A DNA stretch of 64,000 nt from contig CAWDMI010000002.1 in assembly GCA_963803415.1 (NCBI GenBank), forward strand, positions 2,723,512 through 2,787,511. Reading direction: 5' to 3'. This stretch comes from an uncultured delta proteobacterium (GTDB taxonomy: Bacteria > Desulfobacterota > Binatia > UBA9968). Every line of letters starts with the position of its first letter. The stretch's first letter is position 1. The position numbers and the translations under genes were made by a program. Positions 11,710 to 52,546 of the stretch are shown here, one piece after another. A model generated the notes under the pieces. The model was given only the letters and a program-made list of their open reading frames with translations. It was not told where the DNA came from and searched no databases.

Positions 11710-13017
11710 CTAAAGCTTGGCGACGAAACGGCCTGGGTTGAGAATTCCGTGAGGGTCGAATTGTTTCTTGATCTCGCGCATCAGGCTTAGACTCGCGGGC
11801 GGGGGACCCCAGATGTCAATGCCTTGTTTTAACGACGCGGGCGCGGCGATGATCACGGCATGTCCCCCGTGTTCTTGGGCCAGCCGAGTGAGTTTGGCAA
11901 ACCATCCGATACCTTCCGGCGCTGGATTCGTCTGCATCCACATTGCGCCGCTCTGCGCGTGCGCGATAACTTGCGCCGATTGAATGCCATCGTTCGACTG
12001 GTCGAGCGCCATCCACACGTCGCCGATTGACGCCAGCGGGAGAGTCAGACGGTAAACAATGCCGTCTGTATCCACACCGAAGTCACGGATCTGGTTCCAC
12101 AGTCGTTCATGCTGAACGTGCCGCAGAACCTCGGAATCGAGCTCGTGTCGGTTGGCTATTGACTGGAAATCACGGAGATGGCGCTCGACGACCCCGGTGA
12201 ATCCCTCCGCCCGCACCGCAATCGCCGCCGTGTCTTTCTGAAATCCATTCGCCTGCGCCGCCGCGCCGTTGAACACGGTGACTGCGGTCGGCAGAAGCAT
12301 GGAAGAAGAGATTTCTTCTGCGACCTTGACGCAGTCGACCAATGATCCCTGGGCGATGAGCGTTGCGGAATCTTCGAAAAGCGGGGCGAGTTTGAACGTC
12401 GCTTCAGTAATGATTCCTAGCGTTCCTAAAGAGCCGACGAAAAGTTTGCACATGTCATAACCCGCGACGTTTTTGACAACCTTGCCGCCTGCTTTGATCA
12501 CTTCGGCTGTCGCCAGCGTCACTTTCATGCCGATCGTGAGGTCACGGGTACTGCCGTACGAGACCCGCCGCGGCCCGCTAAGATTCGTCGCGAGAACGCC
12601 GCCGACGGTCGCGCGCGACGGGCGAGGAGGATCAAGCGGCAGAAATTGATTGCGCTGTACGAGGGTCTCCTGCACCACGCTGAGACTTATGCCGGCTTCG
12701 ACTGTAGCCGTGAGGTTAGCGTCGTCGTGCTCGACCAGCCGGTTCAACCGGCCGAGGTCGATCACGACATCGAGCTGCCGCGGTGGATTGCCCAACGCCA
12801 TGGCTGTTCCACCACCCCAAGGGGCGATGGCCGCTTCGGCTTCGTTGCAGATACGTAACACCGCCGCAATTTGTGCCGCAGTGAGCGGATAACACAGGAG
12901 CGCAGGCCGTTGGCCGTCGACGATATGTCGGTTGAGCAGGTTAGGCTCCGCCGTTACGGCGTCAGGGCTGAGCGCGGATTCCAGCCTTTGCGCGAGCTGG
13001 TCCTCGCTAAGCTTCAT
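11710..13017 (-). CDS. glcE: Glycolate oxidase FAD-binding subunit GlcE
   Basis: FAD-binding PCMH-type domain. It overlaps glcF by 4 bp and sits in glcD-glcF-glcE order. Confidence 0.75.
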   Translation of the reverse strand: MKLSEDQLAQRLESALSPDAVTAEPNLLNRHIVDGQRPALLCYPLTAAQIAAVLRICNEAEAAIAPWGGGTAMALGNPPRQLDVVIDLGRLNRLVEHDDANLTATVEAGISLSVVQETLVQRNQFLPLDPPRPSRATVGGVLATNLSGPRRVSYGSTRDLTIGMKVTLATAEVIKAGGKVVKNVAGYDMCKLFVGSLGTLGIITEATFKLAPLFEDSATLIAQGSLVDCVKVAEEISSSMLLPTAVTVFNGAAAQANGFQKDTAAIAVRAEGFTGVVERHLRDFQSIANRHELDSEVLRHVQHERLWNQIRDFGVDTDGIVYRLTLPLASIGDVWMALDQSNDGIQSAQVIAHAQSGAMWMQTNPAPEGIGWFAKLTRLAQEHGGHAVIIAAPASLKQGIDIWGPPPASLSLMREIKKQFDPHGILNPGRFVAKL

Positions 13018-14321
13018 TGCGGCGACGAAGTTTCGGCCGCGCTATAGGAGCGGTCAAGAAGATCCACTAGGTGGTACACCTCGATACGGGGGCCGTATTG
13101 CCGCGCGCCGTAGCGGAGCTGAAGCATGCAGCCTGGGTTGGGGGCTACGACGGCTTGCGCGTTGGTCGCGGCGATGGACTGCATTTTCTCTTGCAAGAGA
13201 TTCTGTGACATAGCGGAATGCGTAAGGTTGTAAATCCCGGCACTGCCGCAACAGCGATCGGCACCGTCCATTTCGACGAGCTTCAATCCCGGGATGGCTT
13301 GAATGAGTTGTCTTGGCTGAGAGCGAATGCGCTGGCCATGAGCCAGGTGGCAGGGATCCTGGTAGGTTACGGTCATATTGAGCGGGGCGAGCTTGCCGAT
13401 AAGACCGAGATCGGCGAGAAACTCGGCGGAGTCTTTGACAATCGCGGCGAATTGTTTTGCCTTCCCAGCATAAGCGGAATCGTCCCGCAACAGATAACCG
13501 TACTCTTTCATCGCGGCGCCACACCCGGCTGCGTTCGCGATGATGACATCAACTCCGGCAGCGAGAAATGCCCCGATGTTCCGCCGCGCCATCTCCTTTG
13601 CCGCCGTGCTTTCACCGTTGTGAACGTTTAGCGCGCCGCAGCAGGTTTGGTTTCTTGGAAACACAACCTCGCAACCGTTGCGCTGCAGGACGCGTACCGT
13701 GGCTTCATTCACGTCGCCGAAAAAGTACGGCATGACGCACCCGCTTAGCATGCCCACTTTTGCGCGGCGCGCGCCGATTGACGGTAACGATTCCCGCTTG
13801 AGTTCAAAAAAGCTCTTTGGGATCGTCGGCAGCATCGAATCCATCTCCCTGATCGTCTTCGGTAAGAACGGTCGAGCGGCGAGCTGCAGACCGGTGCGCT
13901 GATAAACGCGCAAGAAACGCGCTGCCCATCTTAGACGCTCAGGGTAGGGAAGTAGCCGGGTAAATGCGAAGTTAAGGACCGAGCGGGAAAGATTTGATCC
14001 GGGCGGGCCGATCATTTCCCGGGCCTTTTCTGCGATGTGTCCGTACTGGACGCCTGAAGGGCAAGCGCTCTCGCAAGCGCGGCAGAGAAGACAAAGGTGC
14101 AAATGTTCTTTAAAGCGATCGTTGAGCTCGATGCGGCCGTCCGCGGCAGCCTTGACCAGGTGAATTCTGCCTCGCGGTGATTCCGGTTCCAAGCGCAGTA
14201 CACGATAGGTCGGGCATTGATTCAGACAAAGCCCGCAGTGGACGCAGCGGTAGAGCTCGGGGATCTCTAATGCGCTTACCTTACCGCGCTCGGGGGCTTG
14301 TGATTTTTCCCCAATGTTCAC
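13014..14321 (-). CDS. glcF: Glycolate oxidase iron-sulfur subunit GlcF (2x4Fe-4S plus CCG domains)
   Basis: CVHCGLCLNQCP and CLLCRACESACP ferredoxin motifs plus C-terminal CCG cysteine clusters. Confidence 0.8.
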   Translation of the reverse strand: MNIGEKSQAPERGKVSALEIPELYRCVHCGLCLNQCPTYRVLRLEPESPRGRIHLVKAAADGRIELNDRFKEHLHLCLLCRACESACPSGVQYGHIAEKAREMIGPPGSNLSRSVLNFAFTRLLPYPERLRWAARFLRVYQRTGLQLAARPFLPKTIREMDSMLPTIPKSFFELKRESLPSIGARRAKVGMLSGCVMPYFFGDVNEATVRVLQRNGCEVVFPRNQTCCGALNVHNGESTAAKEMARRNIGAFLAAGVDVIIANAAGCGAAMKEYGYLLRDDSAYAGKAKQFAAIVKDSAEFLADLGLIGKLAPLNMTVTYQDPCHLAHGQRIRSQPRQLIQAIPGLKLVEMDGADRCCGSAGIYNLTHSAMSQNLLQEKMQSIAATNAQAVVAPNPGCMLQLRYGARQYGPRIEVYHLVDLLDRSYSAAETSSPQ

Positions 14322-14404
14322 GATCGTCCTTCTCTAGCCGTGCTCGGGTTTCGTGCTCGTGCTCGTTACGAACACGAACCACTAACACGAACAACGATCA
14401 GACA

Positions 14405-15868
14405 TCAGATCCATAACCCCGGTGGAATGGGACCTGGTTGCCCCGTGATCTCGCCGCAGCCCAAGGGTGTGGGAAACAGCTTTGCCGGGTTAAAGCGATG
14501 ATCCGGGTCGAAGGCTCGACGGACCCGCGTCATTGCTTCGAGATCGGCCTCGTTGAACAAAAGTCCGATATAGGCTTTCTTTTCCAGGCCGATGCCGTGC
14601 TCGCCGGTAATGCTACCGCCGAGCTCGATGCAGGCGCGCAGCGTGGCCGCGCCGGCCTCGACAACCCGATCGAACTCTCCGGGATTGCGCATATCGAACA
14701 GGATATTCGGGTGGAGATTGCCGTCCCCGGCGTGGAACACGTTGGCAATGCGGAGGTTAAATTGCTTGCTGATATCGGCGATACGCCGCATCATCTCCGG
14801 TAGCTTGCTCCGCGGCACGACGCCGTCCTGGACGTAATAGTTCGGCGCCAGGGCGCCCATGGCGCCGAAAGCGCCTTTTCGGCCTTTCCATAGGAGCTGC
14901 CGCTGAGCTTCGTCCTTAGCGACTCTAACCTCTCGGGAGCGATTATGTTCGCAGATCGCGCCCACGAGACCGATAGAGCACTGAGTCTGTTCGCGCATGC
15001 CCTCGACTTCGACGAGTAGTACCGCTTCGGCGTCGCGGGGAAAACCAACCGGTGAGCCAGTTTCCACCGCCTCGATGGTTGTCCGGTCCATCATCTCCAA
15101 GGCCGCGGGAATGATGCCTGCCGCCGTGATATCGACGACGGTCTGTGTCGCCGTATCCATCTGGTCAAAGATCGCCAGCAGCGTGCTGACGGACTCGCGC
15201 GTCTTCATCAGTCTCAGCGCTACTTTCGTCACGACGCCCATGGTTCCTTCGGAGCCGACGAAAACACCGCAGAGGTCGTAGCCGGGGCTGTCGGGGACTT
15301 GGCCGCCGAGCCACACGACCTGTCCGTCATCCAAGACAACCTCGAGACCCAGAACATGGTTGGTCGTCACGCCATAGGCAAGTGTGTGAGGGCCGCCGGA
15401 ATTGTTGGCGACGTTGCCGCCAATGGAGCAGGCGGCCTGGCTGCTCGGATCGGGCGCGTAGAAGAAGCCGTCTTTGGTTACGGCCTTGGTGACGTCGGCG
15501 TTGGTCACGCCGGGTTCGACAATCGCGATGCGGTTCGGCAGATCGATTTCAATTATACGATTCAGGCGCGCCAGGGAGAGAACAATCCCCCCCTCGGCCG
15601 GCACGGCCCCACCGGCGAGTCCGGTTCCCGAGCCGCGGGGAACAATCGGTAGGTTCGCGCGCCGCGCAAGGCGAATTACCGCTGCAACCTGTTCGACGTC
15701 GGCCGGCAGTACTACCATCTCGGGCAGCGCCTGAAAGATCGAGCCGTCCTGCTCGTATACGATCACGTCTCCCTTATCGACGAGGAGGTAGCGCGGGCCG
15801 ACGATTTCGCGCAGGTCACGGATGAGCACTTCCCGGTTCAAGCTTTGGACCTCAAAACTGCAATACAC
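14405..15868 (-). CDS. glcD: Glycolate oxidase subunit GlcD / FAD-linked oxidase
   Basis: FAD_binding_4 (RGSGTGLAGGAVP) and a C-terminal FAD-oxidase domain. Confidence 0.8.
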   Translation of the reverse strand: MYCSFEVQSLNREVLIRDLREIVGPRYLLVDKGDVIVYEQDGSIFQALPEMVVLPADVEQVAAVIRLARRANLPIVPRGSGTGLAGGAVPAEGGIVLSLARLNRIIEIDLPNRIAIVEPGVTNADVTKAVTKDGFFYAPDPSSQAACSIGGNVANNSGGPHTLAYGVTTNHVLGLEVVLDDGQVVWLGGQVPDSPGYDLCGVFVGSEGTMGVVTKVALRLMKTRESVSTLLAIFDQMDTATQTVVDITAAGIIPAALEMMDRTTIEAVETGSPVGFPRDAEAVLLVEVEGMREQTQCSIGLVGAICEHNRSREVRVAKDEAQRQLLWKGRKGAFGAMGALAPNYYVQDGVVPRSKLPEMMRRIADISKQFNLRIANVFHAGDGNLHPNILFDMRNPGEFDRVVEAGAATLRACIELGGSITGEHGIGLEKKAYIGLLFNEADLEAMTRVRRAFDPDHRFNPAKLFPTPLGCGEITGQPGPIPPGLWI

Positions 15869-16040: not shown

Positions 16041-16080
16041 GGAGTAGCGCACAGAGGCATCTCTAATGGTAGGAGGGGTC

Positions 16081-17193
16081 ATGAATCGAATCAGTGTAAT
16101 CTTTGCGGGACTGGGTCTTCTCACACTCGGGATTTCCGCCGGATGGGGCGCTTCTCGCCTGATGGGCAAAGAGAGGGAGGAAGCAAAGCAACTTTACGCT
16201 GATGCGTGCGCTTCTTGCCACGGCGACGATGGCAAGGGACAGGTCTCCGGCCTGGGCGTTAGCGTACCGCTCCCGGATTTCACTTGGTGCGCATTCAATT
16301 CAGAAGAGACCGATCGAGACTGGGGCCTTGTTGTCGCCGAAGGGGGAGCAGCAGTGGGGCGTTCTGAGCAGATGCCGGCTTTTCACGAGGCACTAACAGA
16401 CCAACAAATCAATCAAGTAATCGCCTATGTTAGAACGTTCTGCACCGAAGATTGGCCGTCGGCCGATCTGAACTTTCCCAGGCCGTTCGTAACCGAAAAG
16501 GCTTTCCCTGAAAACGAACTCGTTCTCACCTGGAATTTCGCCCGCACTCCCGACAAAGAGCGAGACGCTCAGTTCGTATGGGGCCTTGAGAAGCGTTTGG
16601 GAGCCCGGACCCAAATTGAACTGAACCTTCCGTTTTCCATTAGAGATCCGAAGGACGGCGCGACGATTGGAGGGATCGGAGACGTCGAGGCGGCGGTAAA
16701 ATATGCCCTCTACTACAACGATGAAAGTCTCTTTATCCTCAGCGGAGGACTTGAGGTCGGGATGCCGACAGGGAATTTTCATCGGGAATTAGGCGAAGGA
16801 ACAACGACTCTTTCTCCTTTCCTCGCAGCCGGAAAAGCGTGGGGAGATTTCGTGAGCCAGGGAAGTTTGAAGTTTGAATATCCTTTTGTCACACGGCGGG
16901 CGCCAAAAGCGATATTCTATAATCTAGCGTTCTCCTATCCTATTCTTTATGCGGGGAGAGGAACAGAAGTTCAGGCGCTTTTCGAATTCAACGGCCAGAG
17001 CGAGTGGGGAAATCAAAGCGCGAAGCCTTTTCAGCTTTATCTCACGGCCGGTCTGCGGAAAGGAATCACTCTGTCAGGGAACTGGGCGATCGCCCTGGGA
17101 GTGCAAGTGCCGGTGACCCCGGCTAGAGAAACTAACTACCGTGTGATGGGCTATCTTCTCTACGAGCTTCCGGCGTTCCGCTTTGGACGATAG
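16081..17193 (+). CDS. Monoheme c-type cytochrome domain fused to a putative outer-membrane beta-barrel (MetA-pathway/Phenol_MetA_deg-like GxGD barrel)
   Basis: Signal peptide, CASCHG heme motif, and an amphipathic beta-strand-like C-terminal 280 aa with a GGIGDVE motif and an aromatic C-terminus. An RBS aggagg precedes the ATG at 16081. Confidence 0.55.
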   Translation: MNRISVIFAGLGLLTLGISAGWGASRLMGKEREEAKQLYADACASCHGDDGKGQVSGLGVSVPLPDFTWCAFNSEETDRDWGLVVAEGGAAVGRSEQMPAFHEALTDQQINQVIAYVRTFCTEDWPSADLNFPRPFVTEKAFPENELVLTWNFARTPDKERDAQFVWGLEKRLGARTQIELNLPFSIRDPKDGATIGGIGDVEAAVKYALYYNDESLFILSGGLEVGMPTGNFHRELGEGTTTLSPFLAAGKAWGDFVSQGSLKFEYPFVTRRAPKAIFYNLAFSYPILYAGRGTEVQALFEFNGQSEWGNQSAKPFQLYLTAGLRKGITLSGNWAIALGVQVPVTPARETNYRVMGYLLYELPAFRFGR

Positions 17194-41795: not shown

Positions 41796-42707
41796 TTAGC
41801 AGAATGCCGGTGCCATGGCCTCGATTTGCTTTCTCCCCTCGGGCGAGATCTGGCCGACCGTGGCGAGAAAGTTCGGGTGCGTCATGCCGGTGCCCAGATA
41901 AGTCCAGCGCATTCCCTTGAGCACCGCGTTTGTGACCTGCTCGCGCTCGCTCCGGGACAGGTTTCGCCCGGTGGCTTGAACGAAGCTCTCAACGTCAAAT
42001 TCCGCTTGCTGCTTGATCCCGTTATCCAGAAAGCCGCCGATTTCGGCGTATTCCTGAATGCCTTGATCGATTTCTTTTTGCGTCGCATTGGCCACGACAG
42101 ACTCCACCATCAAAGTGTCGAGCTTGGTGTGCTGCGATTCCTCTGCCCAGTGGTGCTTGAGCAAGCTTTTGAACTGCGGGTCGAGGTCCTGGTTGTCGCG
42201 GACGCCTTCGATGTAGTGCCTGAGCGTGCTCCATTCGATGTGGAGAATCGCAATGCCGACGCCCAACGGGCTATGCGACATAACGAAGCGGCTCACGTCT
42301 TCCGCCGGACCGATGAAATCGCATTTGCTGCCGAAACCTGCTTCGAACTCCTGGCGGAAGCGCTTGAAAAGATGAATATGCTTGGCTTCCTCGCCTGCGA
42401 ACTTTAGCAGCGCGCGCACCCGGTAATCGTCTCCCGAGAGTTGCGGCCGGACATGGTCGACGACGTAAGGGAGAATAAACTCCTCGACAAGGCCGAATAT
42501 GGAGAGGTATTCGTGGCCTCTGATCTGATTCAGCGTTTTCTGTTCCTCCAGGGTCAAAAAAGAAAATTGCGTTACTTGCGCCAGCGACTCCGGCATAAAG
42601 GGTTTGCTGAAGTCGAGTTTCTTGTCGCCGCCGATAATATCTTCAATCTTCCAGTTTACCCGCTCGGAAGCTTCAAGCGCCGATTGGTATGAGTAATTGT
42701 GTGCCAT
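41796..42707 (-). CDS. Ferritin-like diiron-carboxylate oxygenase (AurF-like N-oxygenase family)
   Basis: Two E..H motifs (EEAKHIHLF, AEESQHTKL) plus additional Glu ligands; length about 300 aa. Confidence 0.45.
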   Translation of the reverse strand: MAHNYSYQSALEASERVNWKIEDIIGGDKKLDFSKPFMPESLAQVTQFSFLTLEEQKTLNQIRGHEYLSIFGLVEEFILPYVVDHVRPQLSGDDYRVRALLKFAGEEAKHIHLFKRFRQEFEAGFGSKCDFIGPAEDVSRFVMSHSPLGVGIAILHIEWSTLRHYIEGVRDNQDLDPQFKSLLKHHWAEESQHTKLDTLMVESVVANATQKEIDQGIQEYAEIGGFLDNGIKQQAEFDVESFVQATGRNLSRSEREQVTNAVLKGMRWTYLGTGMTHPNFLATVGQISPEGRKQIEAMAPAFC

Positions 42708-42837
42708 TGTCTTATCCTCCTTTTGCTTTGGTTAACGTGATGAAACCGAGTAGAGCAGGAGGTGTGCCACTTTGTCGGAAATGCCTTTTGCTAGTAACAT
42801 TGGAGACTTAGGAGAATGGCGGCGCGCTCGGGCGCTC

Positions 42838-42886
42838 GCGAGATCTCGCAAGTTACGAGATCTCACGACGATAAATGCGAGATCTC
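42838..42886. promoter_or_regulatory. Array of three palindromic GAGATCTC sites (GCGAGATCTCGC, CGAGATCTCACG, GCGAGATCTCACG), likely operator sites upstream of the diiron oxygenase gene
   Basis: Read directly; centre-to-centre spacing 17 and 22 bp. Confidence 0.4.
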
Positions 42887-42950
42887 ACGTTTGACGGGCA
42901 GGCGAAACTCGCGGGTCCCGTTGGAGGGAGTCGAACCACTGCAGGGCTCG

Positions 42951-43241
42951 CTAGCGGGTCCGGTTGTACACGTAGTCCTCGCGCTCGCCTTTGCCAACGC
43001 GCAGATCGGTCGGAGACGGAGGACGAGTGCGGTTCAATCGGGCATGCACGTCTAATGCGGCCTGATCCGCCCAGCGCTCGAGTACCACAACCTTGTCCGG
43101 ATCCATGACGCTCTGGAAGGCCTCGAACTGTTCGCAGCCCGGCTCTTTCATCGCCTCCGCGCAGCGAGCCCTATACCGCTGCGCAAGTTCGGAGCCCTTA
43201 CCCGGTGCCGCTGTGATCGTCAGAACAATGCGTACTGCCAT
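42951..43241 (-). CDS. Antibiotic-biosynthesis-monooxygenase (ABM) domain protein / putative quinol monooxygenase
   Basis: 96 aa with the ABM ferredoxin-like pattern (RIVLTITAAPGKGSEL...FEAFQSVMDPDKVVVLERW). Confidence 0.7.
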   Translation of the reverse strand: MAVRIVLTITAAPGKGSELAQRYRARCAEAMKEPGCEQFEAFQSVMDPDKVVVLERWADQAALDVHARLNRTRPPSPTDLRVGKGEREDYVYNRTR

Positions 43242-43858
43242 GGTGTCTTCCTTTCAACGGGCCATTAGTGGATGTTTTGCGGGGCATCTGCTGTAAACGA
43301 CGTCATACTTATCGAGGAGCTCTCGTAAGGCATGCTTGTGTTTGTCAAAAACACTCGTGAACGAGGAGACCTCGATCTCAGCTCTGCATGGCCGGGGGAT
43401 TATTGCTGTTCCAAATGTCGCGCGCCATTCCCCAGGCGATTTGTGTATAATCTTTTTCGCCGGTTAACAACCGGTGGCCCAGATAATTCACAACGAGCGC
43501 GACCGAAGCGCATCAAACGGGGCAGAGCCACGCGGTCGTGGTATCGGGCACTGCGGTATGGAAGGGCGGCCAACCAAGTCCCGCGCTGAGACGGCGTGTT
43601 TTGCATGCGGTCGCCCTGATGAAGGAGCGACGTGCCGCTACGAGGACCAGCGTCACGTGTTCGGCCTCGATGCCGCCGACCCCATGTTGTCCGAGAACGT
43701 CTTGCCCGAGACGATGACGGTGTGATCGTGCTCGAATCCGAGCAGGCGAAAAAACTGCTTGGCCCGTTCGACGTCACGGACCACGATTGTCACGTGGTCA
43801 AAGTTCTTTATCACCATAGGAGCTTCTTTGCGCGATCGGGCTCACTCTGTTTTAGACC

Positions 43859-44397
43859 TCAGTCGCTTTCCTGGTACCATCCGTAATCTCGTCCGTTCCA
43901 GTAGAGGAGCGCGCTTGCCGACTCCGACTTCGCCACCCATAGCGCGTCGCCGCGCAGCTGCAACGCGCGCTTCTCCCAGGGACTCTGCTTCACCGCTCCT
44001 TTTGGATACAGGGTCCAGTTGTCCATCCATGCGAAGTCAGGGCCTCCGTTATTCATCGATCGGCCAGCACCGAGCACAAAAGCGCGTTTTGTGCCCCGAT
44101 GAATCACCGCGATACCGATCTGTCCGGTTGCGACGTTGCGCACCAAGATCGCCGTATCAGTTTGATGGTCGCCGTCGAAGTCACCGAGGATGAAGAACGG
44201 GTTTAAGTGAAATGAGGGTTCGTACTACTTCTGCAGGCCGTGATTGCTTGCGAACTCGCATACCCACCGTGGAAGGTTTGCGCGCATGGAGGACTCGGTC
44301 GGCGCGCCCTGGCGATAGTCACACCAGCCAGGTTCTGCTGCGAGGCTAGGCGACCTGAAGCAGAACAGCAGGAGCAGAGTTACGAGGGCGGATCGCA
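43859..44397 (-). pseudogene. Secreted FG-GAP/VCBS-like repeat protein interrupted by an in-frame TAG (about 44225-44227)
   Basis: Hand translation gives a signal peptide MRSALVTLLLLFCFRSPSLAAEP...NHGLQK*. Immediately after the stop it reads in frame YEPSFHLNPFFILGDFDGDHQTD..., an FG-GAP-like Ca-binding motif. Confidence 0.4.
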
Positions 44398-45324
44398 TGG
44401 TTATACGCGCGGAAACAACACCTTGCGCCGGTACAGCCTGTCAAACTTGGCTCTAGTGCTCTGGATTTCCACTCAGTTCGTCGAGAAAGCGTTGCTTCTG
44501 CCAGGAATTCTGCGCCGCTGCCGCCGAGCGCTTTAAGCCCCCCGGGAATCCAGAGATAGCGCTCCCCTTCGGGCCGGGTATCGAGATCGATGATCAGAGT
44601 GGCAAGTTTCTCCTGAGCATCAGGGAGGAGAAAACGAGTAAAGTTTTTGCCCGCGACGTTGGCGCCGGCGCAGCCAAATATCTTCTCTGCCGCGGGATTC
44701 ATCCGTGTCACCTGGAGTTGCTGGTCTAGCTCAATAATCCCATCCAGCGCGCTATCGAACAGCCGGCGCAGTTTCTTCTCACGTTCCCGCACTTGTCGTT
44801 CAGCACGCATGCGCTGCAGCTCCGCGGCGGCGCGCGCCGCAAAGATACGAGACAATGCAAGACCCCGCGGCTCTTCCGGAATGGGGCGCCGATCGAGAAC
44901 TGCCAGGTGGCCCGAAGATCTTGCCGTCGACATCGAGCAAGGGAACCCCGAGATAGCTAACGGCGCCTATGGGTTTGAGGTCCGGATCGTCAGGGTAGAG
45001 TTGGATGACGTTATCCCGAATGTGGACGAGCCGGCACTCTTCAAACACGGGTTCGCAAGGAGTACCGGCGATATCGTATTCGTAGTCGGGGACGAGACGG
45101 TCCCCTAACCAGAAAGCTACGGCGCGCAGGCGGCGCGCGTGGCCATCAGTGATGGTAACCCACGCACCGTGGGTGGCGAGCGCCTTTGCCAGGTGTTCGA
45201 CCAGCGCGGCAAAAAAATCTTCGCCTGTCTCTTTCGCCGTTCCTTCAACGATCTGGCGCAGCGCCGCGGCCTCGACGAGGCCGCGCAAACCAATCATTTC
45301 CTTCGTGTCTTCTTTGCCCGGCAT
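44346..45324 (-). pseudogene. GAF-PAS sensor protein fragment with a 1-bp frameshift (about 44890) and no output domain
   Basis: ORF 44800..45324 is a GAF domain (LLDVDGKIF...). ORF 44346..44933 continues ...GHLAVLDRRP..., then a PAS domain (RRLFDSALDGIIELD...). Joining them requires deleting one G from a ggg run. Confidence 0.45.
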
Positions 45325-45613: not shown

Positions 45614-45862
45614 TCACTTTTTACCCTTAAAGTAGTCCGCGTTGATTTGAATGTAGTGCTGCCACTTTTCCGGGACTTTGTCGGCCGGAAAAATGGCTTC
45701 CACCGGACAAACCGGCACGCAGCCGTCACAGTCGATGCACTCATCGGGATCGATGTAGAGCATCGTGTCCTTATCAGTGCCGTGAATGCAATCCATCGGG
45801 CAAACATCGATGCAAGCCTTGTCCTTAACGTCAATGCAAGGCTCCGCGATTACAAATGCCAT
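45614..45862 (-). CDS. fdxA: 7Fe ferredoxin (FdxA-like, [3Fe-4S][4Fe-4S])
   Basis: MAFVIAEPCIDVKDKACIDVCPMDC...CIDCDGCVPVCPVEAIF is a classic FdxA cysteine pattern. Confidence 0.85.
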   Translation of the reverse strand: MAFVIAEPCIDVKDKACIDVCPMDCIHGTDKDTMLYIDPDECIDCDGCVPVCPVEAIFPADKVPEKWQHYIQINADYFKGKK

Positions 45863-45969
45863 TGTTGGGATCTCCCCGTTTGGTAGTTGCCGCGTCAACA
45901 GACCGTTGAAAAAAACCCCTGTGCGATCTCAGTTTCGGATTTCGAGTTTAGAGTCTGGATAAACTATCG

Positions 45970-47199
45970 TCACTGTCCGACCGGCACTCCATGGGCGGCC
46001 GACTTGGTCGCATGCAGCCGCTTGTCCTGCAAGGTGGTGTGCTTCGCGTCACAGCCGGGAATACCGCAGGTCACAGCCTTCGGAGCGTTGTCGTAGCTCA
46101 ACCACTTCATGCGCTTCCAGGGCCGCTTGCCCCAGATGAGGTCATCGATCCAGAGCAGCGGTTTGACGATCAGCACGCGTAGAGGGATCGGCGTTGTCTT
46201 TACCGACCACATCGCCAAATCATGCCACCACGTGTCGGGTTTGTTGTAGCAGCACGACGAAACGCAGACCACGCAATTGGTCCATTCACCGCGGCCGGCC
46301 ATCTTGTACTTGTAACAGGTCTCGATGTTGACAAGATACTTTTCGACGCCGTTTAGAACCTCTTTCTCGCCAAAGGGAATACTGTGCGAGGGACAGGTGC
46401 GGGCGCATTTCTTGCAATATTTACAGAACTCCTCGACGCCAATATCTACCGGCTCGTCGACCGCCATGGGCAGGTCGGTGGTTACGACCGTCAGGTGCAG
46501 GCGCGAACCGTACGTCTCGTGAATCAGCATCCCGTGGCGTCCCAGCTCTCCCAAGCCGGCGTTGATCGCCAAGGGAATTGGGTTGACCGAGGACCGTCCA
46601 TGATGATGCGCGGTTGCGGGATAGCCCATCTCGCGAATGTAGGAGGCGAGCATGAAAGTGGGCACAATGGCGTGGTTATTGCCGTATTGGTATTCGGTGT
46701 CCGAGATCTTGCTGTTGTTGCTCATGTACTTGTGGTAGTCGCCCTCGTAACCCAGCACAATCGCGTAACGATGAGGAATATTGATAGGGTCACCGGGCTT
46801 TTCTCCCATCGCGGCGTTGCCGCGGGCGCGGTGCGAATAGACATAGAGCTGGTCGAGATGTGTGATCCCAGCCACGGTGGCTCCCAGGTATTTGGCTACG
46901 CCTTTGATTTGTTTTGCCATCTCAACGGGGTCGTCGACCGGAATCCGGTTGGGATTGACCTTTCCTTCTGGCGCGTCCTTCATAAGCTTCTGCAAGGTGT
47001 TGTTAGGATCGCCTTCGCCGCCGCCGCCGAAGAGTCGCCTGAAGGGATCGTTGCCGACGCGATTCTTACGCCAATCACGGAGCCGCGCTCCGAACTCGCC
47101 GCGTTCGACCTTGGGATGAGGGGTCTCGCGCTCGTCGATCTGGCGTTGGGCGCCTACAATACGGAAACTGCGTGGATTGGCCTGTTTGGATTGAAACAT
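45970..47199 (-). CDS. Corrinoid/[4Fe-4S] reductase of the reductive dehalogenase (RdhA)/QueG superfamily; no Tat signal, so probably cytoplasmic
   Basis: Two C-terminal Fe-S motifs: CKYCKKCARTCP (CxxCxxCxxxCP) and C-x13-CVVCVSSCC. The central region LGATVAGITHLDQLYVYSH is RdhA/QueG-like. The true start may be downstream, near MKDAPEG. Confidence 0.45.
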   Translation of the reverse strand: MFQSKQANPRSFRIVGAQRQIDERETPHPKVERGEFGARLRDWRKNRVGNDPFRRLFGGGGEGDPNNTLQKLMKDAPEGKVNPNRIPVDDPVEMAKQIKGVAKYLGATVAGITHLDQLYVYSHRARGNAAMGEKPGDPINIPHRYAIVLGYEGDYHKYMSNNSKISDTEYQYGNNHAIVPTFMLASYIREMGYPATAHHHGRSSVNPIPLAINAGLGELGRHGMLIHETYGSRLHLTVVTTDLPMAVDEPVDIGVEEFCKYCKKCARTCPSHSIPFGEKEVLNGVEKYLVNIETCYKYKMAGRGEWTNCVVCVSSCCYNKPDTWWHDLAMWSVKTTPIPLRVLIVKPLLWIDDLIWGKRPWKRMKWLSYDNAPKAVTCGIPGCDAKHTTLQDKRLHATKSAAHGVPVGQ

Positions 47200-47292
47200 G
47201 GAAAGCCTCCTTTTCCGTTGTGCGCAGGTGGTTAGATCGATGGGACTATACGCCGGTTAGGAAGGCGCGGTCAAGGGCCGTTCTCCGCGGCC

Positions 47293-48267
47293 TTACTTCT
47301 TCCCAACGGCCTCGGGATTGATCACGTTGATGGGCTTGCCGGCGGCATAGGCGAGAATATTCTCTACCGTCCTCCCGTAATAGGCTTCATAGGTGTCTTG
47401 CTCCACGTAGCCCAGGTGGGGCGTGCCTACGACGTTGTCCATCTTGAGCAAAGGGTGGTCGGCGCCGATCACGGGCTCGTCTTCATAAACATCTACCGCC
47501 GCAAAACCTGGCCGGCCCGCTTTCAGCGCCTCGACCAGCGCTCCTTCGGCGATGAGTCCGGCACGGCTGGTATTGACGAGGAGCGCGCTCGGCTTCATGT
47601 GCGCGAGATCCGCGCGCGTGACAATGCCGCGGGTCTCTTTATTGAGCGGCATATGCACGCACAGAATATCGGCAGCGGCGAAAAAGGCTTCGCGGCTCGG
47701 GGCAAACTCATACCCCGCTTCTCTGGCGCGCGCGGCCGATCCTTCGCGGCCCCAAATCAATACCCGCGCCCCAAACGCGCGTCCGACCTTTGCCACCATA
47801 CCGCCGATGTTGCCGAGCGCATAGATCCCCAGCGTTTTACCGTGCACGCCGACGCCGATAGTCGATTGCCAGTGCCCTTCTCGCAGTCGCTTCACCTCGT
47901 AAGGTATGTGACGCAAGGCGGATAGGATCAGCCCCCAGGCGAGTTCCGCGGTCGTGTGGGGTCTGCCGCCGCCGCGAGCGGAAATAATGATGCCGTGCTC
48001 GGTGCACGCCGCGACATCAATGTGGCTCGTGTTGCCTCCGGTCTGGCTGATGAACCTGAGCTTGGGCAGGCGCTCGATTACCTGCCGAGGAAAGCGCGAG
48101 CGCTGCTGGGTTAGAAGAACGACTTCCGCGTCCTTCAGCCGCTCGGCCAGCCGCGCTGGATCTTTTTCGGTGTCGTTGTAGACTACAACCTCGTGGTCTT
48201 TGAGCTTGGGATAGCACTTAAGCGTGCGAAACGCGTTCTGATAATCGTCGATTACGGTAATCTTCAT
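47293..48267 (-). CDS. D-isomer-specific 2-hydroxyacid dehydrogenase (NAD-binding)
   Basis: GxGxxG motif GIYALGNIGGMVA; catalytic region VNTSRAGL...VGTPHLG. Confidence 0.8.
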   Translation of the reverse strand: MKITVIDDYQNAFRTLKCYPKLKDHEVVVYNDTEKDPARLAERLKDAEVVLLTQQRSRFPRQVIERLPKLRFISQTGGNTSHIDVAACTEHGIIISARGGGRPHTTAELAWGLILSALRHIPYEVKRLREGHWQSTIGVGVHGKTLGIYALGNIGGMVAKVGRAFGARVLIWGREGSAARAREAGYEFAPSREAFFAAADILCVHMPLNKETRGIVTRADLAHMKPSALLVNTSRAGLIAEGALVEALKAGRPGFAAVDVYEDEPVIGADHPLLKMDNVVGTPHLGYVEQDTYEAYYGRTVENILAYAAGKPINVINPEAVGKK

Positions 48268-48496
48268 AGCAATCCTTTCTGATGGGGGCACTATTTGCTT
48301 TGTGCGTGAAATTACTGACTATCACGTGCCGGTGTCAACCCCTTCAGGGTTTTTTCCCATCGCTCTTGATTGTCCGCTGCCAGTCCAACGTGGTTGACGC
48401 GCTTGTCAAGTTTTGCATAGTCTCAGCAAGTTGCCGATACCGCAGCCGGGTGCGGAGTGAGATGCCGGCTCGGGGTGTCGGCGGGAGAAGAGATCA

Positions 48497-49648
48497 TTGC
48501 GGCGTAAAAGAGTTTGCTTTATCGGATACGGCTCAACGGCGTATTCAAGAAAATCTGAGGAGCCGTTGTTGTGGTATTATGCCGGAGCCATTCGCCAGGC
48601 TCTCGAGCAAACCGGCCTTCACAAAAAAGAGATCCAGGGTCTCTCCATCACGACTCAGGCCAGTCCCGATTATTCGCCCCACGTTGCCGAGCAGCTCGGG
48701 CTCGAGCTCGACTGGGTCCTCAATGGTGATTACGGCGGAGCGGGCGGCGTAATGAGCGTCCGCCGGGCGGCGGACGCGATCGAAGTGGGTCACATCGACG
48801 TCGCGGTGCTGGTCGGCGGCAACTCATTTGACAAGAGCGTCTCCCAGCAGCGGCCGCTGGAATACCAGCGCGCGAATTACGTTGACGTGTACGGCTATGG
48901 CGGACCGAACAGCCTGATGGCGTTGATTCAGCGGCTGCACATGGCGCAGTACGGCACGACCTTGGAGCAGATCGGCAAGATCGCCGTGGCGCAGAGGGAG
49001 AACGCCCTGAATAATCCACAAGCTTTGTTCCGCGCGCCGATGAGTTTTCAGGACTATCTCAACTCGCGGATGATCTCCGACCCGATTCGTCTCTTCGATT
49101 GTGTGATGCCCTGCTCGGGCGCGGAGTGCGTCATCCTGGCCTCGGAGGAGAAAGCAAAAGCCATCACTGACAAGCTTATCTATCTCGTGACCGACGCGGA
49201 GAAGGTCCATTACCAGGTTGCTGACATGCTGCCCGACAAGACCACTTTTGGTATGAAAGTGGTGGGAGAGCGGATTTTCAGCGAGGTCAGGCGAGAGGAT
49301 ATCGACTTTTTCGAGATCTACGATGACTATCCCATCGCGGTGATGATTCAGGTCGAGGATCTTGGCTACTGCAAGAAGGGCGAAGGCGGAAGATTTGTCG
49401 AAGCCCACGATCTTACCTACAGAGGTGATTTTCCGCTCAATACCGGCGGCGGGGAGCTCTCCGTCGGTCAGGCGGGATTGGCCGGAGGCTTTTTGCATAT
49501 CGTCGAGGCCTTGCGGCAACTCAGGGGCGAGGCCGATGGTCACCAGGTGAAGCAGGCGGAGCGGGCGCTGGTGACGGGGATCGGTTGGCTCAATTACGGC
49601 CATAACCTCGGCACGACGGCCGCATTGGTTTTGGAAAGGAGAAAATAA
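48497..49648 (+). CDS. Thiolase-like lipid-transfer protein (SCP-x-type thiolase)
   Basis: Thiolase-fold pattern; paired with the downstream DUF35 OB-fold gene. Confidence 0.7.
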   Translation: MRRKRVCFIGYGSTAYSRKSEEPLLWYYAGAIRQALEQTGLHKKEIQGLSITTQASPDYSPHVAEQLGLELDWVLNGDYGGAGGVMSVRRAADAIEVGHIDVAVLVGGNSFDKSVSQQRPLEYQRANYVDVYGYGGPNSLMALIQRLHMAQYGTTLEQIGKIAVAQRENALNNPQALFRAPMSFQDYLNSRMISDPIRLFDCVMPCSGAECVILASEEKAKAITDKLIYLVTDAEKVHYQVADMLPDKTTFGMKVVGERIFSEVRREDIDFFEIYDDYPIAVMIQVEDLGYCKKGEGGRFVEAHDLTYRGDFPLNTGGGELSVGQAGLAGGFLHIVEALRQLRGEADGHQVKQAERALVTGIGWLNYGHNLGTTAALVLERRK

Positions 49649-50070
49649 TGGCGGATGCGGCGCGAGCGCTGAAGAGCCTGCCAAACATCAACAAAGTCGA
49701 TCAGCCGTACTGGCAGGGCGCCGCCGTCGGCAAGCTTCTCCTACAGAAATGCAAAGCTTGCAGCAAGCTGCAGTTTTTTCCGCGCATCGTTTGCGTCAAC
49801 TGCTTCAGCGGCAATCTCGAATGGGTCCCAGCAGCCGGCACGGGAAGAGTTCACAGTTTTACCTGGGTGCGGGTGCCGCGCAATCGCGCATTCAAAGAGG
49901 AAGCGCCGATTTGCTACGTCAACATCGTCTTGGATGAAGGCGTGATTATGGAGAGCCGCCTTGTGGGCGAGCGCATTAATAACGTCAAGCTCGGCGACCG
50001 TGTTCGGGTTGCGTTCCAGGATACCGTCGATCCGTTAATCAAACTTCCGGTATTCAAGTTGGCAGGCTAG
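49648..50070 (+). CDS. Zn-ribbon/OB-fold (DUF35) partner of the SCP-x thiolase
   Basis: CKACSKLQFFPRIVCVNC zinc ribbon followed by an OB-fold; the start overlaps the thiolase stop. Confidence 0.7.
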   Translation: MADAARALKSLPNINKVDQPYWQGAAVGKLLLQKCKACSKLQFFPRIVCVNCFSGNLEWVPAAGTGRVHSFTWVRVPRNRAFKEEAPICYVNIVLDEGVIMESRLVGERINNVKLGDRVRVAFQDTVDPLIKLPVFKLAG

Positions 50071-50128
50071 CGATTTTAGATTGGCGATTCTCGGTTTTGG
50101 ATTCAGGAAAGACAAAAGAGGGCAGCGC

Positions 50129-50926
50129 ATGGAATTTCACAACATCATTTACGAATTGAGAGATCAGATCGGCCGGGTGACGTTCAATCGGCCCGAGTCG
50201 ATGAATGCCATCAACGGGCAGATGAGTCGGGAAATCATCGATGCCTGCCGGGAGGCGGATGAGGACGGCCAGGTTAGAGTGGTCGTCTTTACCGGGGCCG
50301 GGGAAAAGGCTTTCTCGGCGGGCATGGATTTGAAGGAAAGAGCCAGTGGGACGACGCCTACGTATCTCGACCGGCGGCAGCGAAAGCTCGCACCGGTGAT
50401 CAGCACGCACGCACGCGCCGTGGCATCGATCTCGAAGCCGACCATCGCGGCTGTCCGCGGGTATTGTCTGGGCGGCGGCCTGGAAATGGCGCTCGCCTGC
50501 GACTTCCGGTTCGCCTCCGAAGACGCGAAGCTGGGTTTGACCGAAGTCAGAATGGGTTTGATTCCGGGCGCGGGCGGCACGCAGAGATTAACGCGACTCG
50601 TCGGTCCGGCGAAGGCGTTAGAGATCTGCATGACGGGCGATGCGGTCAGCGGCGTCGAGGCGCACCGCATCGGTATTGTCAATGACGTCGTGCCCGCCGG
50701 CGCCTTGATGAAAAGGGTCGAGGAATTCGCCGGCAGGCTGATCAAAGGGGCGCCGATCTCGCTATCGTTTCTAAAGGAGGCTATTTACAAAGGGAGCGAG
50801 ATGCCTTTGGACGATGGCCTGCGGCTCGAAGCGGACCTCTCCGCCCTGATCGCGACGACTGAAGACAGCAAGGAAGGCCCGCGTGCGTTTGTCGAAAAGC
50901 GAGCGCCGATATGGAAGGGGAAATAG
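50129..50926 (+). CDS. Enoyl-CoA hydratase (crotonase)
   Basis: Crotonase motifs VVVFTGAGEKAFSAGMDL and GYCLGGGLEMALACD. Confidence 0.85.
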   Translation: MEFHNIIYELRDQIGRVTFNRPESMNAINGQMSREIIDACREADEDGQVRVVVFTGAGEKAFSAGMDLKERASGTTPTYLDRRQRKLAPVISTHARAVASISKPTIAAVRGYCLGGGLEMALACDFRFASEDAKLGLTEVRMGLIPGAGGTQRLTRLVGPAKALEICMTGDAVSGVEAHRIGIVNDVVPAGALMKRVEEFAGRLIKGAPISLSFLKEAIYKGSEMPLDDGLRLEADLSALIATTEDSKEGPRAFVEKRAPIWKGK

Positions 50927-51012
50927 GAAAGTAAAAAGGTAAAAGTAAAATAAGAATGAAGAAGAAGGAAAAGTACAAAGGTAAGACGTAAAAAGCCAAA
51001 GCCAAGAAAAGG
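50927..51012. repeat. Roughly 85-bp purine-rich (A+G about 90%) intergenic tract
   Basis: ggaaataggaaagtaaaaaggtaaaagtaaaataagaatgaagaagaaggaaaag... read directly. This is unusual in a high-GC context. Confidence 0.5.
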
Positions 51013-51016
51013 CAAC

Positions 51017-52546
51017 ATGGAGATTCCGCTAATCATCGGCGACGCGCTCCGGCGCAATGCGGCTAAATACCCGCTGAAGGTTGCTCTGCACGATTGTGCC
51101 CGGGAAATCACTTATGGAAAGCTTAACGACAGGGTTAACAGGCTGGCGAATAGTCTTTTAGATAGCGGAGTTCAAAAGAGCGATCCGGTCGCGCTTCTGG
51201 TCGGCAACCGAATCGAACATCTGGAGATCGTCTTGGCCCTGGCAAAGATCGGCGCCCTGGCGATTCCTTTGGACGTGAAATGGCGTGCCCTGGAGATAGC
51301 TTCGACGCTCACGTCGTTGCAGCCGGTACTGCTATTCATGGAGCCGGGTTGTCTGAAGGAACTCAGCGCGGCGAAGAAACAAGAACACGCGCCGGGTTCT
51401 ATCAGGGCTGTCACGCTTGATGACGAAAGCTACACGGCAATGCTTGAAAACCCGAGATGCCAAGAGCCAGAGGTCGAGGTGACCGAAAGCGATCCGTTCA
51501 TGGTGCTGATTACTTCAGGAACGACGGGCTTTCCCAAGGGGTGTGTCAGCAACCACCGAACTTATGTTCTTCATTGCATCAACAATGCGATCGAAAAGGG
51601 GTTGGGAGTTCATGACCGGGCGTTGCTCTCCTCGCCGATTTACTTCAATCACGGGCGGTCTTATACGCTCGGGATGCTCTATTTTGGCGCCACCGTGTTC
51701 ATGCATTCGCATTTCGATCCCAAGGAAGTCTTGAACACGATCGAGCGAGAAAAAATTACTTACCTGGGCGCCGTTCCCACAATGTGCGAACGTCTTCTGC
51801 AAGTCCAAGAGTGGGCGAGATATGATACCAGCTCGCTTCGTTGCCTGGCCATCACCGGCGGCAAGGTGCATCCGACCGTTCTCGAAGAGCTAAAGAAATA
51901 CATCACGCCCAACATCTACCGGACTTATGCCTCCACCGACTCCGGGCAGATGGCGATTTCCAAACCGCACGATATGGAAAACAAACCGATGTCGGCGGGG
52001 CGCCCGGTATGGTGTGTGGAGCTCCGCATCGTGGACGAGAGCGGCACGGCTGTTCCCGCGGGGGAGATCGGGGAGATCATCTGCAAGAGCCCTCTCGCCA
52101 CTCAAGGATATTACAAAAACCCGCAAGCCACGTCGGCGTCGTTCCGCGATGGCTGGTTTCACACCGGGGATTTAGGCTACTTCGACGAGGAAGGATACCT
52201 CTATATTACGGGGCGGAAAAAGGACATGATCAAGAGCGGCGGAGTCAGCATCTATCCCCTGGAGATCGAGAGCGTTCTCTACAGTCATCCCAATGTTCTT
52301 GAAGCCGCCGTGATCGGAGTCCCCGATCCGGACTGGGGAGAAGCTGCCAAGGCCGTCGTGGTTCTTAAAGAGAGTGCTCCAGGCGGGGAGACGGAGCTGA
52401 TCGCGTTTTGCAAGCAACGTTTGGCCGGCTATAAAGTCCCCAAGTCGGTAGAAGTCGTCTTCTCATTGCCCCACACCGAAGCGGGAAAGGTGGCGAAAAA
52501 AGAGCTTAAGGCGCTGCTGGCGCATGATGATAAACGTGAGGTCTGA
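51017..52546 (+). CDS. AMP-dependent synthetase/ligase (acyl-CoA synthetase)
   Basis: AMP-binding motif LITSGTTGFPKG and the C-terminal GRKKDMIKSGG. Confidence 0.85.
   Translation: MEIPLIIGDALRRNAAKYPLKVALHDCAREITYGKLNDRVNRLANSLLDSGVQKSDPVALLVGNRIEHLEIVLALAKIGALAIPLDVKWRALEIASTLTSLQPVLLFMEPGCLKELSAAKKQEHAPGSIRAVTLDDESYTAMLENPRCQEPEVEVTESDPFMVLITSGTTGFPKGCVSNHRTYVLHCINNAIEKGLGVHDRALLSSPIYFNHGRSYTLGMLYFGATVFMHSHFDPKEVLNTIEREKITYLGAVPTMCERLLQVQEWARYDTSSLRCLAITGGKVHPTVLEELKKYITPNIYRTYASTDSGQMAISKPHDMENKPMSAGRPVWCVELRIVDESGTAVPAGEIGEIICKSPLATQGYYKNPQATSASFRDGWFHTGDLGYFDEEGYLYITGRKKDMIKSGGVSIYPLEIESVLYSHPNVLEAAVIGVPDPDWGEAAKAVVVLKESAPGGETELIAFCKQRLAGYKVPKSVEVVFSLPHTEAGKVAKKELKALLAHDDKREV

Follow-up and report, generated by a model that had tools for sequence, protein, structure and literature searches.

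A predicted cytoplasmic corrinoid reductase of the RdhA superfamily with a shifted active-site tyrosine and a linked 7Fe ferredoxin in an uncultured Binatia bacterium

We analyzed a stretch of 64,000 nucleotides from an uncultured delta proteobacterium of the Binatia lineage (assembly GCA_963803415.1, contig CAWDMI010000002.1, positions 2,723,512 to 2,787,511), hereafter called the window, in which two adjacent genes encode a reductase of the RdhA (reductive dehalogenase) superfamily and a ferredoxin. Both genes, and all of their features described below, lie on the minus strand. The first gene (45970-47199) is an open reading frame (ORF) of 409 amino acids, which starts with an ATG at 47199 and encodes a putative cytoplasmic, single-domain corrinoid/2x[4Fe-4S] reductase. 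A Shine-Dalgarno sequence, AAGGAGG, is found 6 nt ahead of this ATG (47206-47212), and a GGA-rich block is kept at this site in the alignment of upstream regions. As the protein has 320 database homologues, the best of which are 87-88% identical to it over their full length, the ORF can be taken as a genuine gene and not a chance reading frame. No second rdhA copy was found within the window. The second gene (45614-45862) encodes an 82-residue ferredoxin of the 7Fe ([3Fe-4S][4Fe-4S]) FdxA type, a putative dedicated electron donor to judge from its PDB matches and conserved position. Its ATG at 45862 has GGGGAGA ahead of it; a TTG start at 45898 was rejected, as it adds 12 residues that the homologues lack. 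The initial annotation had rightly placed the ferredoxin downstream on the same strand, but its gap of 108 bp is in fact a spacer of 107 nt (45863-45969), which includes the GGGGAGA.

Two iron-sulfur (Fe-S) motifs can be located in the 409-residue protein, as the initial annotation had reported. The first [4Fe-4S] motif, CKYCKKCARTCP, spans residues 259-270 (46390-46425), where the family alignment shows no variation at C259, C262, C265, C269, and P270. The second, C295-x13-C309xxC312xxxC316-C317 (residues 295-317; 46249-46317), reads C-x13-CVVCVSSCC; among family members, the eight cluster cysteines vary little or not at all. The same annotation had claimed that neither a twin-arginine translocation (Tat) signal nor an RdhB anchor is present, and motif, hydropathy, and ORF scans all agree. 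The protein has no RRxFLK-like Tat motif (its sole RR, at residues 54-55, precedes a Gly-rich polar sequence) and its N-terminus is devoid of any hydrophobic stretch. The maximum Kyte-Doolittle hydropathy over 19 residues is 1.3, and thus no transmembrane helix is predicted. Furthermore, the region from 41 to 52 kb holds no small ORF with at least two hydrophobic segments, hence no rdhB candidate. We conclude from these sequence features that the protein is cytoplasmic.

An RdhA of organohalide respiration could be envisaged, given the general RdhA homology of the protein and its matches in the PDB to the respiratory enzyme PceA (E-values of 1e-27 to 1e-41, second after NpRdhA of Nitratireductor pacificus). 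However, we rejected this identity because Tat signal, transmembrane helix, and rdhB are all lacking, as is an N-terminal anchor; the protein also falls outside the Tat and TM3 clades in the RdhA tree described below. We therefore regard a respiratory role as very improbable.

The epoxyqueuosine reductase QueG shares the B12/2x[4Fe-4S] architecture, and is, like the window protein, a cytoplasmic class III B12 enzyme. Unlike the window protein, QueG carries an N-terminal DUF1730 domain and a different C-terminal domain, and it keeps the canonical active-site tyrosine. Profile searches separate the two families: the window protein scores 167.8 bits against the NCBIfam reductive dehalogenase model TIGR02486 (cutoff 160.35, a narrow pass) vs. 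45.5 bits against the QueG model TIGR00276 (cutoff 200), the latter match spanning 64 profile positions in the Fe-S region only. A Pfam scan of the protein returned weak Fer4 models only, and did not find DUF1730. QueG structures are matched at E-values of about 1e-6 to 1e-8 (2e-6 in the single-sequence search), and their fold is the most distant of those compared (see below). In addition, up to four paralogues of the protein occur per metagenome-assembled genome (MAG). Profile score, architecture, and fold thus all led us to reject a QueG identity, the probability of which we consider negligible, and the layout which had been judged by eye to fit RdhA better than QueG does indeed belong to the former.

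Within the RdhA superfamily, the top PDB sequence match is NpRdhA, with an E-value of 5e-47 for the single sequence and 1.7e-69 for a profile of 31 family sequences. An AlphaFold2 model computed from the family alignment (predicted local distance difference test score, pLDDT, of 79; predicted template modeling score, pTM, of 0.82), which is unreliable only over its last ~45 residues, gives the same ranking: NpRdhA is the best fold match (query-normalized template modeling score, TMq, of 0.71 over 378 aligned columns), followed by PceA (TM 0.50-0.58) and QueG (0.38). In the profile alignment, residues 8-368 correspond to residues 271-616 of NpRdhA, which is its catalytic half alone, and the vestigial N-terminal domain of the NpRdhA/BhbA type, a duplicate of the cobalamin-binding domain, is therefore absent. 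No C-terminal PDOR-type NAD(P)H reductase domain, as found in the self-sufficient subtype, was detected by Pfam and NCBIfam scans either, the C-terminal 40 residues forming a Cys/His tail instead. Taken together, profiles and model identify the protein as an RdhA superfamily member with a predicted RdhA core fold in a single domain. The motif AGLGELGRxG in the corrinoid region is invariant or nearly so in the family alignment, and the protein would presumably bind a corrinoid.

The best 120 of the 320 homologues are ~400-residue proteins with 51-88% identity to the window protein, variously annotated as hypothetical protein, ferredoxin, or reductive dehalogenase domain-containing protein. Nearly all come from MAGs labeled Deltaproteobacteria or Candidatus Binatia, with some from Chloroflexi, and the closest genome locus (88%) belongs to a Microflora Danica MAG. 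Among 1.84 billion cluster representatives at 50% identity, the family amounts to a single cluster, followed by a handful of relatives at ~40% identity and then by the main body of the RdhA superfamily (2534 matches at E <= 1e-3). Several copies may reside in one genome: the MAG JACPSE01 carries four family paralogues (loci L009, L011, L012, and L026), tandem rdhA-fdx modules are found in locus L014 (3714-7020), and L017 (2554-5649) and L021 (3474-7574) each hold two rdhA copies side by side. Such multiple paralogues and tandem modules fit a catabolic enzyme with diversified substrates better than they fit a housekeeping enzyme.

The active site is where the family departs most clearly from other RdhA proteins. 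We compared residue counts between the 120 family members and 126 other RdhA cluster representatives, using the numbering of the window protein. The segment Y170-Q-Y-G-N174 (46678-46692) was identified as part of the active-site helix through profile alignment to NpRdhA and PceA. In this alignment, N174 faces the canonical proton-donor Tyr (Y426 in NpRdhA, Y246 in Sulfurospirillum multivorans PceA, and its equivalent in Desulfitobacterium hafniense PceA), while Y170 aligns with S422 of NpRdhA and T242 of PceA, four residues, or one helical turn, before the canonical Tyr. Position 174 is occupied by Asn in 87 family members (Gln in 11, His and Asp in 5 each, Tyr in 1), vs. Tyr in 118 of the 126 other representatives. 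Conversely, position 170 is Tyr in 118/120 family members, while the other representatives have Thr or Ser in 88 cases and Tyr in only 4. The register at positions 170 and 174 is robust because no gaps occur between flanking anchors across very diverse sequences, and both residues belong to the same predicted helix (163-176) in the AlphaFold2 model.

Two further positions complete the signature. His235 (46495-46497), which the profile alignment equates with K488 of NpRdhA and R305 of PceA, is His in 112 and Gln in 7 of the family members, vs. Arg in 101 and Lys in 19 of the other representatives. Position 299, the equivalent of NpRdhA R552, is Arg or Lys in 119/120 family members (one being gapped), vs. 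Trp in 95 and Arg in 14 of the others. S422, K488, and R552 of NpRdhA all contact the same substrate hydroxyl, and productive binding is abolished in the K488Q mutant (PMC7565698). Of this hydroxyl-binding set, the family thus keeps R552 as Arg or Lys, and replaces K488 by His and S422 by Tyr. Given this arrangement, Tyr170 could point into the pocket beside His235 and Arg/Lys299, and deliver a proton from a different angle.

The family is also distinguished outside the pocket. Its second cluster motif terminates in CC instead of the usual CP, position 317 being Cys in 103/120 family members and Pro in 117/126 other representatives. Finally, the C-terminal tail contains the pattern C378-x4-C383-x3-H387-x8-H396 (46012-46068), in which C378 and C383 are conserved in 118/120 members, H387 in 117/120, and H396 in 107/120. 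This CCHH tail is missing from the 126 other representatives, and its Cys pair recurs in relatives from Acidiferrales, Eisenbacteria, and Eremiobacterota. Such conservation suggests an extra metal site, in a region for which the AlphaFold2 model is of low confidence.

In a neighbor-joining tree of the core region, built without support values, the family and three ~40% representatives that carry the same signature, Y/x/H(Q)/R (positions 170, 174, 235, and 299), come out together, separate from both the S/Y/K/R clade of NpRdhA and the respiratory clades with T|S/Y/R/W. Without their vestigial domain and in a clade of its own, the window protein is not close kin of NpRdhA or BhbA. This placement bears on one alternative, namely that the gene encodes a catabolic dehalogenase of the usual NpRdhA/BhbA kind, with ortho-halogenated phenolic acids as substrates, in which the active-site changes would only tune specificity. 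NpRdhA is the nearest solved structure and the R552 equivalent is retained, as noted above, and the TctC and other solute-binding proteins and Amidohydro_2 proteins encoded near several loci would fit aromatic or carboxylic acid metabolism. On the other hand, these neighbor families are highly paralogous, and thus weak evidence; the vestigial and PDOR reductase domains that define the group (PMC10463259) are absent; the clade is separate in the tree; and Y426 and K488, both required for NpRdhA activity, are not conserved. We therefore view this explanation as doubtful. The description of the protein as catabolic dehalogenase-like in the initial annotation is supported, NpRdhA being its nearest solved relative by sequence and predicted fold, with the caveats of a separate clade without the vestigial domain and of a canonical Tyr position that holds another residue.

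The ferredoxin exhibits the Cys pattern Cx7Cx3CP...CxxCxxCxxxCP of 7Fe ferredoxins, which are typical of aerobes. Its closest solved relatives are Mycobacterium smegmatis FdxA (2V2K; E-value of 6.5e-29, query residues 3-79), 1BC6, the Thermus protein 1H98, and Azotobacter vinelandii FdI. It resembles such FdxA ferredoxins in Cys pattern and length class, but differs from them in falling under the NCBIfam equivalog cutoffs (106.4 bits vs. 125 for FdxA_Actino, the best model, and 82.2 vs. 135 for FdxA_Protbact) and in partnering an RdhA-like gene instead of being a stand-alone housekeeping protein.

A tblastn search with the window ferredoxin revealed a same-strand homologue downstream of rdhA in most close loci. 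The spacer between the two genes is 24-214 nt long in relatives with an intact rdhA, and reaches 301 nt in locus L022, where the rdhA frame is broken. We then sorted all RdhA-like ORFs in 83 loci according to their active-site signature, and looked for an FdxA-type gene up to 2.5 kb downstream. Such a gene occurs on the same strand in 25 of the 36 testable clade loci (Tyr at 170, not at 174), vs. none of the 47 testable loci with a canonical RdhA (Tyr at 174); the associated Fisher p-value is 5.6e-13, for loci that are phylogenetically non-independent. Ferredoxin-linked clade loci span Binatia, Chloroflexota, Dehalococcoidia, Acidiferrales, and Eremiobacterota. The link is thus conserved across phyla and specific to the clade, beyond simple adjacency in the window, and is the firmest evidence obtained from gene context. 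It supports the ferredoxin-coupled type proposed by the initial annotation.

The ~40% relatives from Dehalococcoidia, Acidiferrales, and Eremiobacterota carry the ferredoxin gene 0.6-0.9 kb downstream of rdhA. There, a separate ORF of ~210-260 amino acids, similar to the N-terminal (corrinoid-domain) half of RdhA alone, lies between rdhA and the ferredoxin gene (L057, 7267-8555; L031, 6065-7602; L029, 7032-8179; L037, 7243-8303; L032, 7240-7722). This half-RdhA ORF recalls the fused vestigial domain of NpRdhA, here as a gene of its own. The ferredoxin of L057 is itself fused to an HbpS-like/DUF336 domain (PF03928), and an ORF of L029 (5345-5743) looks DUF336-like by eye.

At the DNA level, conservation with the nearest relatives is confined to rdhA, fdx, and ~76 bp upstream, the flanks being unrelated. 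The upstream segment contains a sigma-70-type promoter-like site, TTGACC-18-TATAGT (47245-47274), which matches the consensus at 10 of 12 positions. Its CTTGAC and GGC.TAT blocks (-35 and -10) are invariant in 7 loci, in which the other upstream sequence has diverged. Since only the gene pair and this segment with its invariant promoter blocks are conserved, rdhA and fdx behave as a self-standing module of two genes that carries a promoter of its own. The 2-hydroxyacid dehydrogenase gene upstream (47293-48291) does not belong to it: an operon including this gene was rejected, as it adjoins no homologue elsewhere and the conserved promoter separates it from rdhA. Recurrent neighbors of the homologues include NMT1, SBP_bac, and TctC solute-binding proteins and Amidohydro_2 proteins, families which are highly paralogous in these genomes and thus provide weak hints only.

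We therefore favor, with moderate confidence, the interpretation of the locus as a self-contained, cytoplasmic, ferredoxin-driven corrinoid reductase module of two genes, with a shifted-Tyr active site and dehalogenation as its most likely chemistry. The ferredoxin would be reduced by a cellular ferredoxin reductase encoded outside the module, and would pass single electrons to the two Fe-S clusters of the enzyme, which in turn would reduce the corrinoid cobalt. The cobalt would then reductively cleave the bond between carbon and a leaving group, most likely a halogen, in a soluble intracellular small molecule. The proton would come from the Tyr170/His235/Arg-or-Lys299 group instead of the canonical Tyr-Arg/Lys dyad. 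For NpRdhA, ferredoxins are encoded within the gene cluster and a ferredoxin can drive the enzyme in vitro (PMC10463259). Dehalogenation is plausible, and the most likely chemistry, because of family membership, the NpRdhA-like pocket scaffold, and an RdhA-like expansion of paralogues.

Several observations weigh against this interpretation. The TIGR02486 cutoff is exceeded by a slim margin, and the dehalogenase domain PF13486 neither matches the window protein at E <= 0.1 nor is recorded for its homologues. The canonical Tyr position is non-Tyr in 119/120 family members. That Tyr is the one residue common to PceA, NpRdhA, and QueG (PMC4646009) and its mutation (Y426) inactivates NpRdhA (PMC5500849); its proposed replacement by Tyr170 relies on helix periodicity. 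There is no nearby ferredoxin in 11 of the 36 clade loci, and all family members come from uncultured organisms. In addition, the window contains no gene for a ferredoxin reductase, for B12 biosynthesis or uptake, or related to halogens, and neither a cobalamin riboswitch nor any other Rfam element; gene context thus says little about the substrate. As the canonical catalytic Tyr is missing from its standard position, we use the term dehalogenase for an inferred activity, not a demonstrated one.

Because the canonical dyad is missing, a B12/Fe-S reductase with another chemistry, such as removal of a different leaving group or epoxide reduction, has to be considered. Such a change would parallel the divergence of QueG from the RdhA proteins, which shows that the superfamily can accommodate reactions other than dehalogenation (PMC4646009). 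Moreover, the clade-wide signature Y170/non-Tyr 174/H235/R299 differs from 118 of the 126 other RdhA representatives, and the clade is further marked by a unique CCHH tail and by the CC motif. However, positive evidence for any alternative substrate is lacking, the pocket-forming segments align with NpRdhA across residues 8-368, and several paralogues per genome is RdhA-like behavior. We thus deem a non-dehalogenase reaction unlikely. A bolder proposal, which we put forward only tentatively, is that the clade as a whole, i.e., the Binatia/Chloroflexota family and its ~40% relatives from Dehalococcoidia, Acidiferrales, Eisenbacteria, and Eremiobacterota, may constitute a distinct family of class III B12 enzymes, with a Tyr that hopped by one turn and pairs with His, a CCHH metal site, and an obligate 7Fe ferredoxin. 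Were this the case, these enzymes would either achieve dehalogenation through another geometry of proton delivery or catalyze a reductive reaction new to B12 enzymes, and would do so in widespread uncultured bacteria of soil and groundwater.

To our knowledge, solved structures cover only two types of RdhA, the respiratory PceA and the catabolic NpRdhA, and mechanistic models are built on the Tyr-Arg/Lys dyad common to both. With respect to the ferredoxin-driven module favored here, NpRdhA (PDB 4RAS, 6ZXU) is likewise cytoplasmic, without Tat signal or RdhB, and displays the same two Fe-S motifs. However, the window protein replaces Y426 by Asn, K488 by His, and S422 by Tyr, has CC for CP and an extra CCHH tail, and is paired with a 7Fe ferredoxin in a tight two-gene module of a separate clade. 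Moreover, as it lacks a vestigial second domain, it is probably a homodimer, unlike NpRdhA, which is a monomer, but like PceA of S. multivorans and D. hafniense, a single-domain enzyme that dimerizes and has the same core fold and Fe-S motifs. Unlike the window protein, PceA is Tat-exported, RdhB-anchored, and equipped with the Y246/R305 dyad and a Trp in place of R299.

Reports of RdhA homologues that are cytoplasmic and lack both Tat signal and RdhB go back to 2016 or earlier (PMC4959651). The window family also resembles the 'simplified cytosolic type' of RdhA from a cold-seep survey (PMC12219181), which comprises cytosolic proteins of ~395-400 amino acids without a vestigial domain, and likewise occurs in Desulfobacterota- and Chloroflexota-like lineages. 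This type is set by length and architecture only, so that the likeness to our clade holds on those grounds; the text searched mentions no shift of the Tyr and no ferredoxin dedicated to this type. Our literature searches retrieved nothing relevant on Binatia/Binatota dehalogenases, and no description of the shifted Tyr/His signature, the CCHH tail, or the dedicated 7Fe ferredoxin module of the clade. The clade is thus best described, from its sequences, as an uncharacterized RdhA branch, whose key active-site residues differ from those of all studied members. A large natural clade with a moved Tyr and a His for the basic partner offers a test of the actual role of the dyad, and its genetically linked ferredoxin addresses a practical gap, as reconstitution of NpRdhA with its neighboring redox proteins failed (PMC10463259). 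The family is common in soil and groundwater Binatia and Chloroflexota; if its members are active dehalogenases, they would be a sign of cytoplasmic organohalide turnover outside the classical sites of organohalide respiration.

Other features of the window and of the homologous loci are as follows. Downstream of fdx, a GAF ORF (44800-45324) and a PAS ORF (44346-44933), both on the minus strand, overlap in different frames and lack an output domain; they look like the remnant of a frameshifted, truncated GAF-PAS regulator. An intact GAF-GAF-sigma54 activator is encoded two or three genes downstream of rdhA-fdx in loci L001, L002, and L005. The minus strand further contains short broken reading frames between 43400 and 44400, including a VOC/glyoxalase-like N-terminal fragment of ~54 amino acids (43653-43817) and a signal-peptide ORF (44225-44398) which resumes in the same frame past a stop codon into 43859-44146. 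These broken frames suggest either gene decay or assembly errors.

On the plus strand, divergent from the 2-hydroxyacid dehydrogenase gene, lies a cluster for coenzyme A (CoA) metabolism (48497-52546), encoding an SCP-x-type thiolase, a ChsH2-like OB-fold/zinc-ribbon protein (DUF35), an enoyl-CoA hydratase, and an AMP-dependent ligase. Beyond this cluster, three SBP_bac-type binding proteins and an Amidohydro_2 gene are found up to 57.6 kb. On the other side of the module, the minus strand carries, at 41796-43241, genes for a 303-residue protein with a sub-threshold match to AurF-like diiron oxygenases (27.1 vs. 29.6 bits) and for an adjoining ABM monooxygenase of 96 amino acids. Farther away, a trio resembling glycolate/D-lactate oxidase (11710-15868, minus strand) consists of an FAD_binding_4 protein, a CCG/Fe-S protein, and a flavin adenine dinucleotide (FAD)-linked oxidase, and a cytochrome c gene (16066-17193) is divergent from it. 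Finally, small UGSC-domain (PF24696) proteins, accompanied by unannotated proteins of ~360-440 amino acids, are encoded a few kb upstream of rdhA in one Binatia locus (L001, 1424-4209) and one Chloroflexi locus (L086, 4397-6090).

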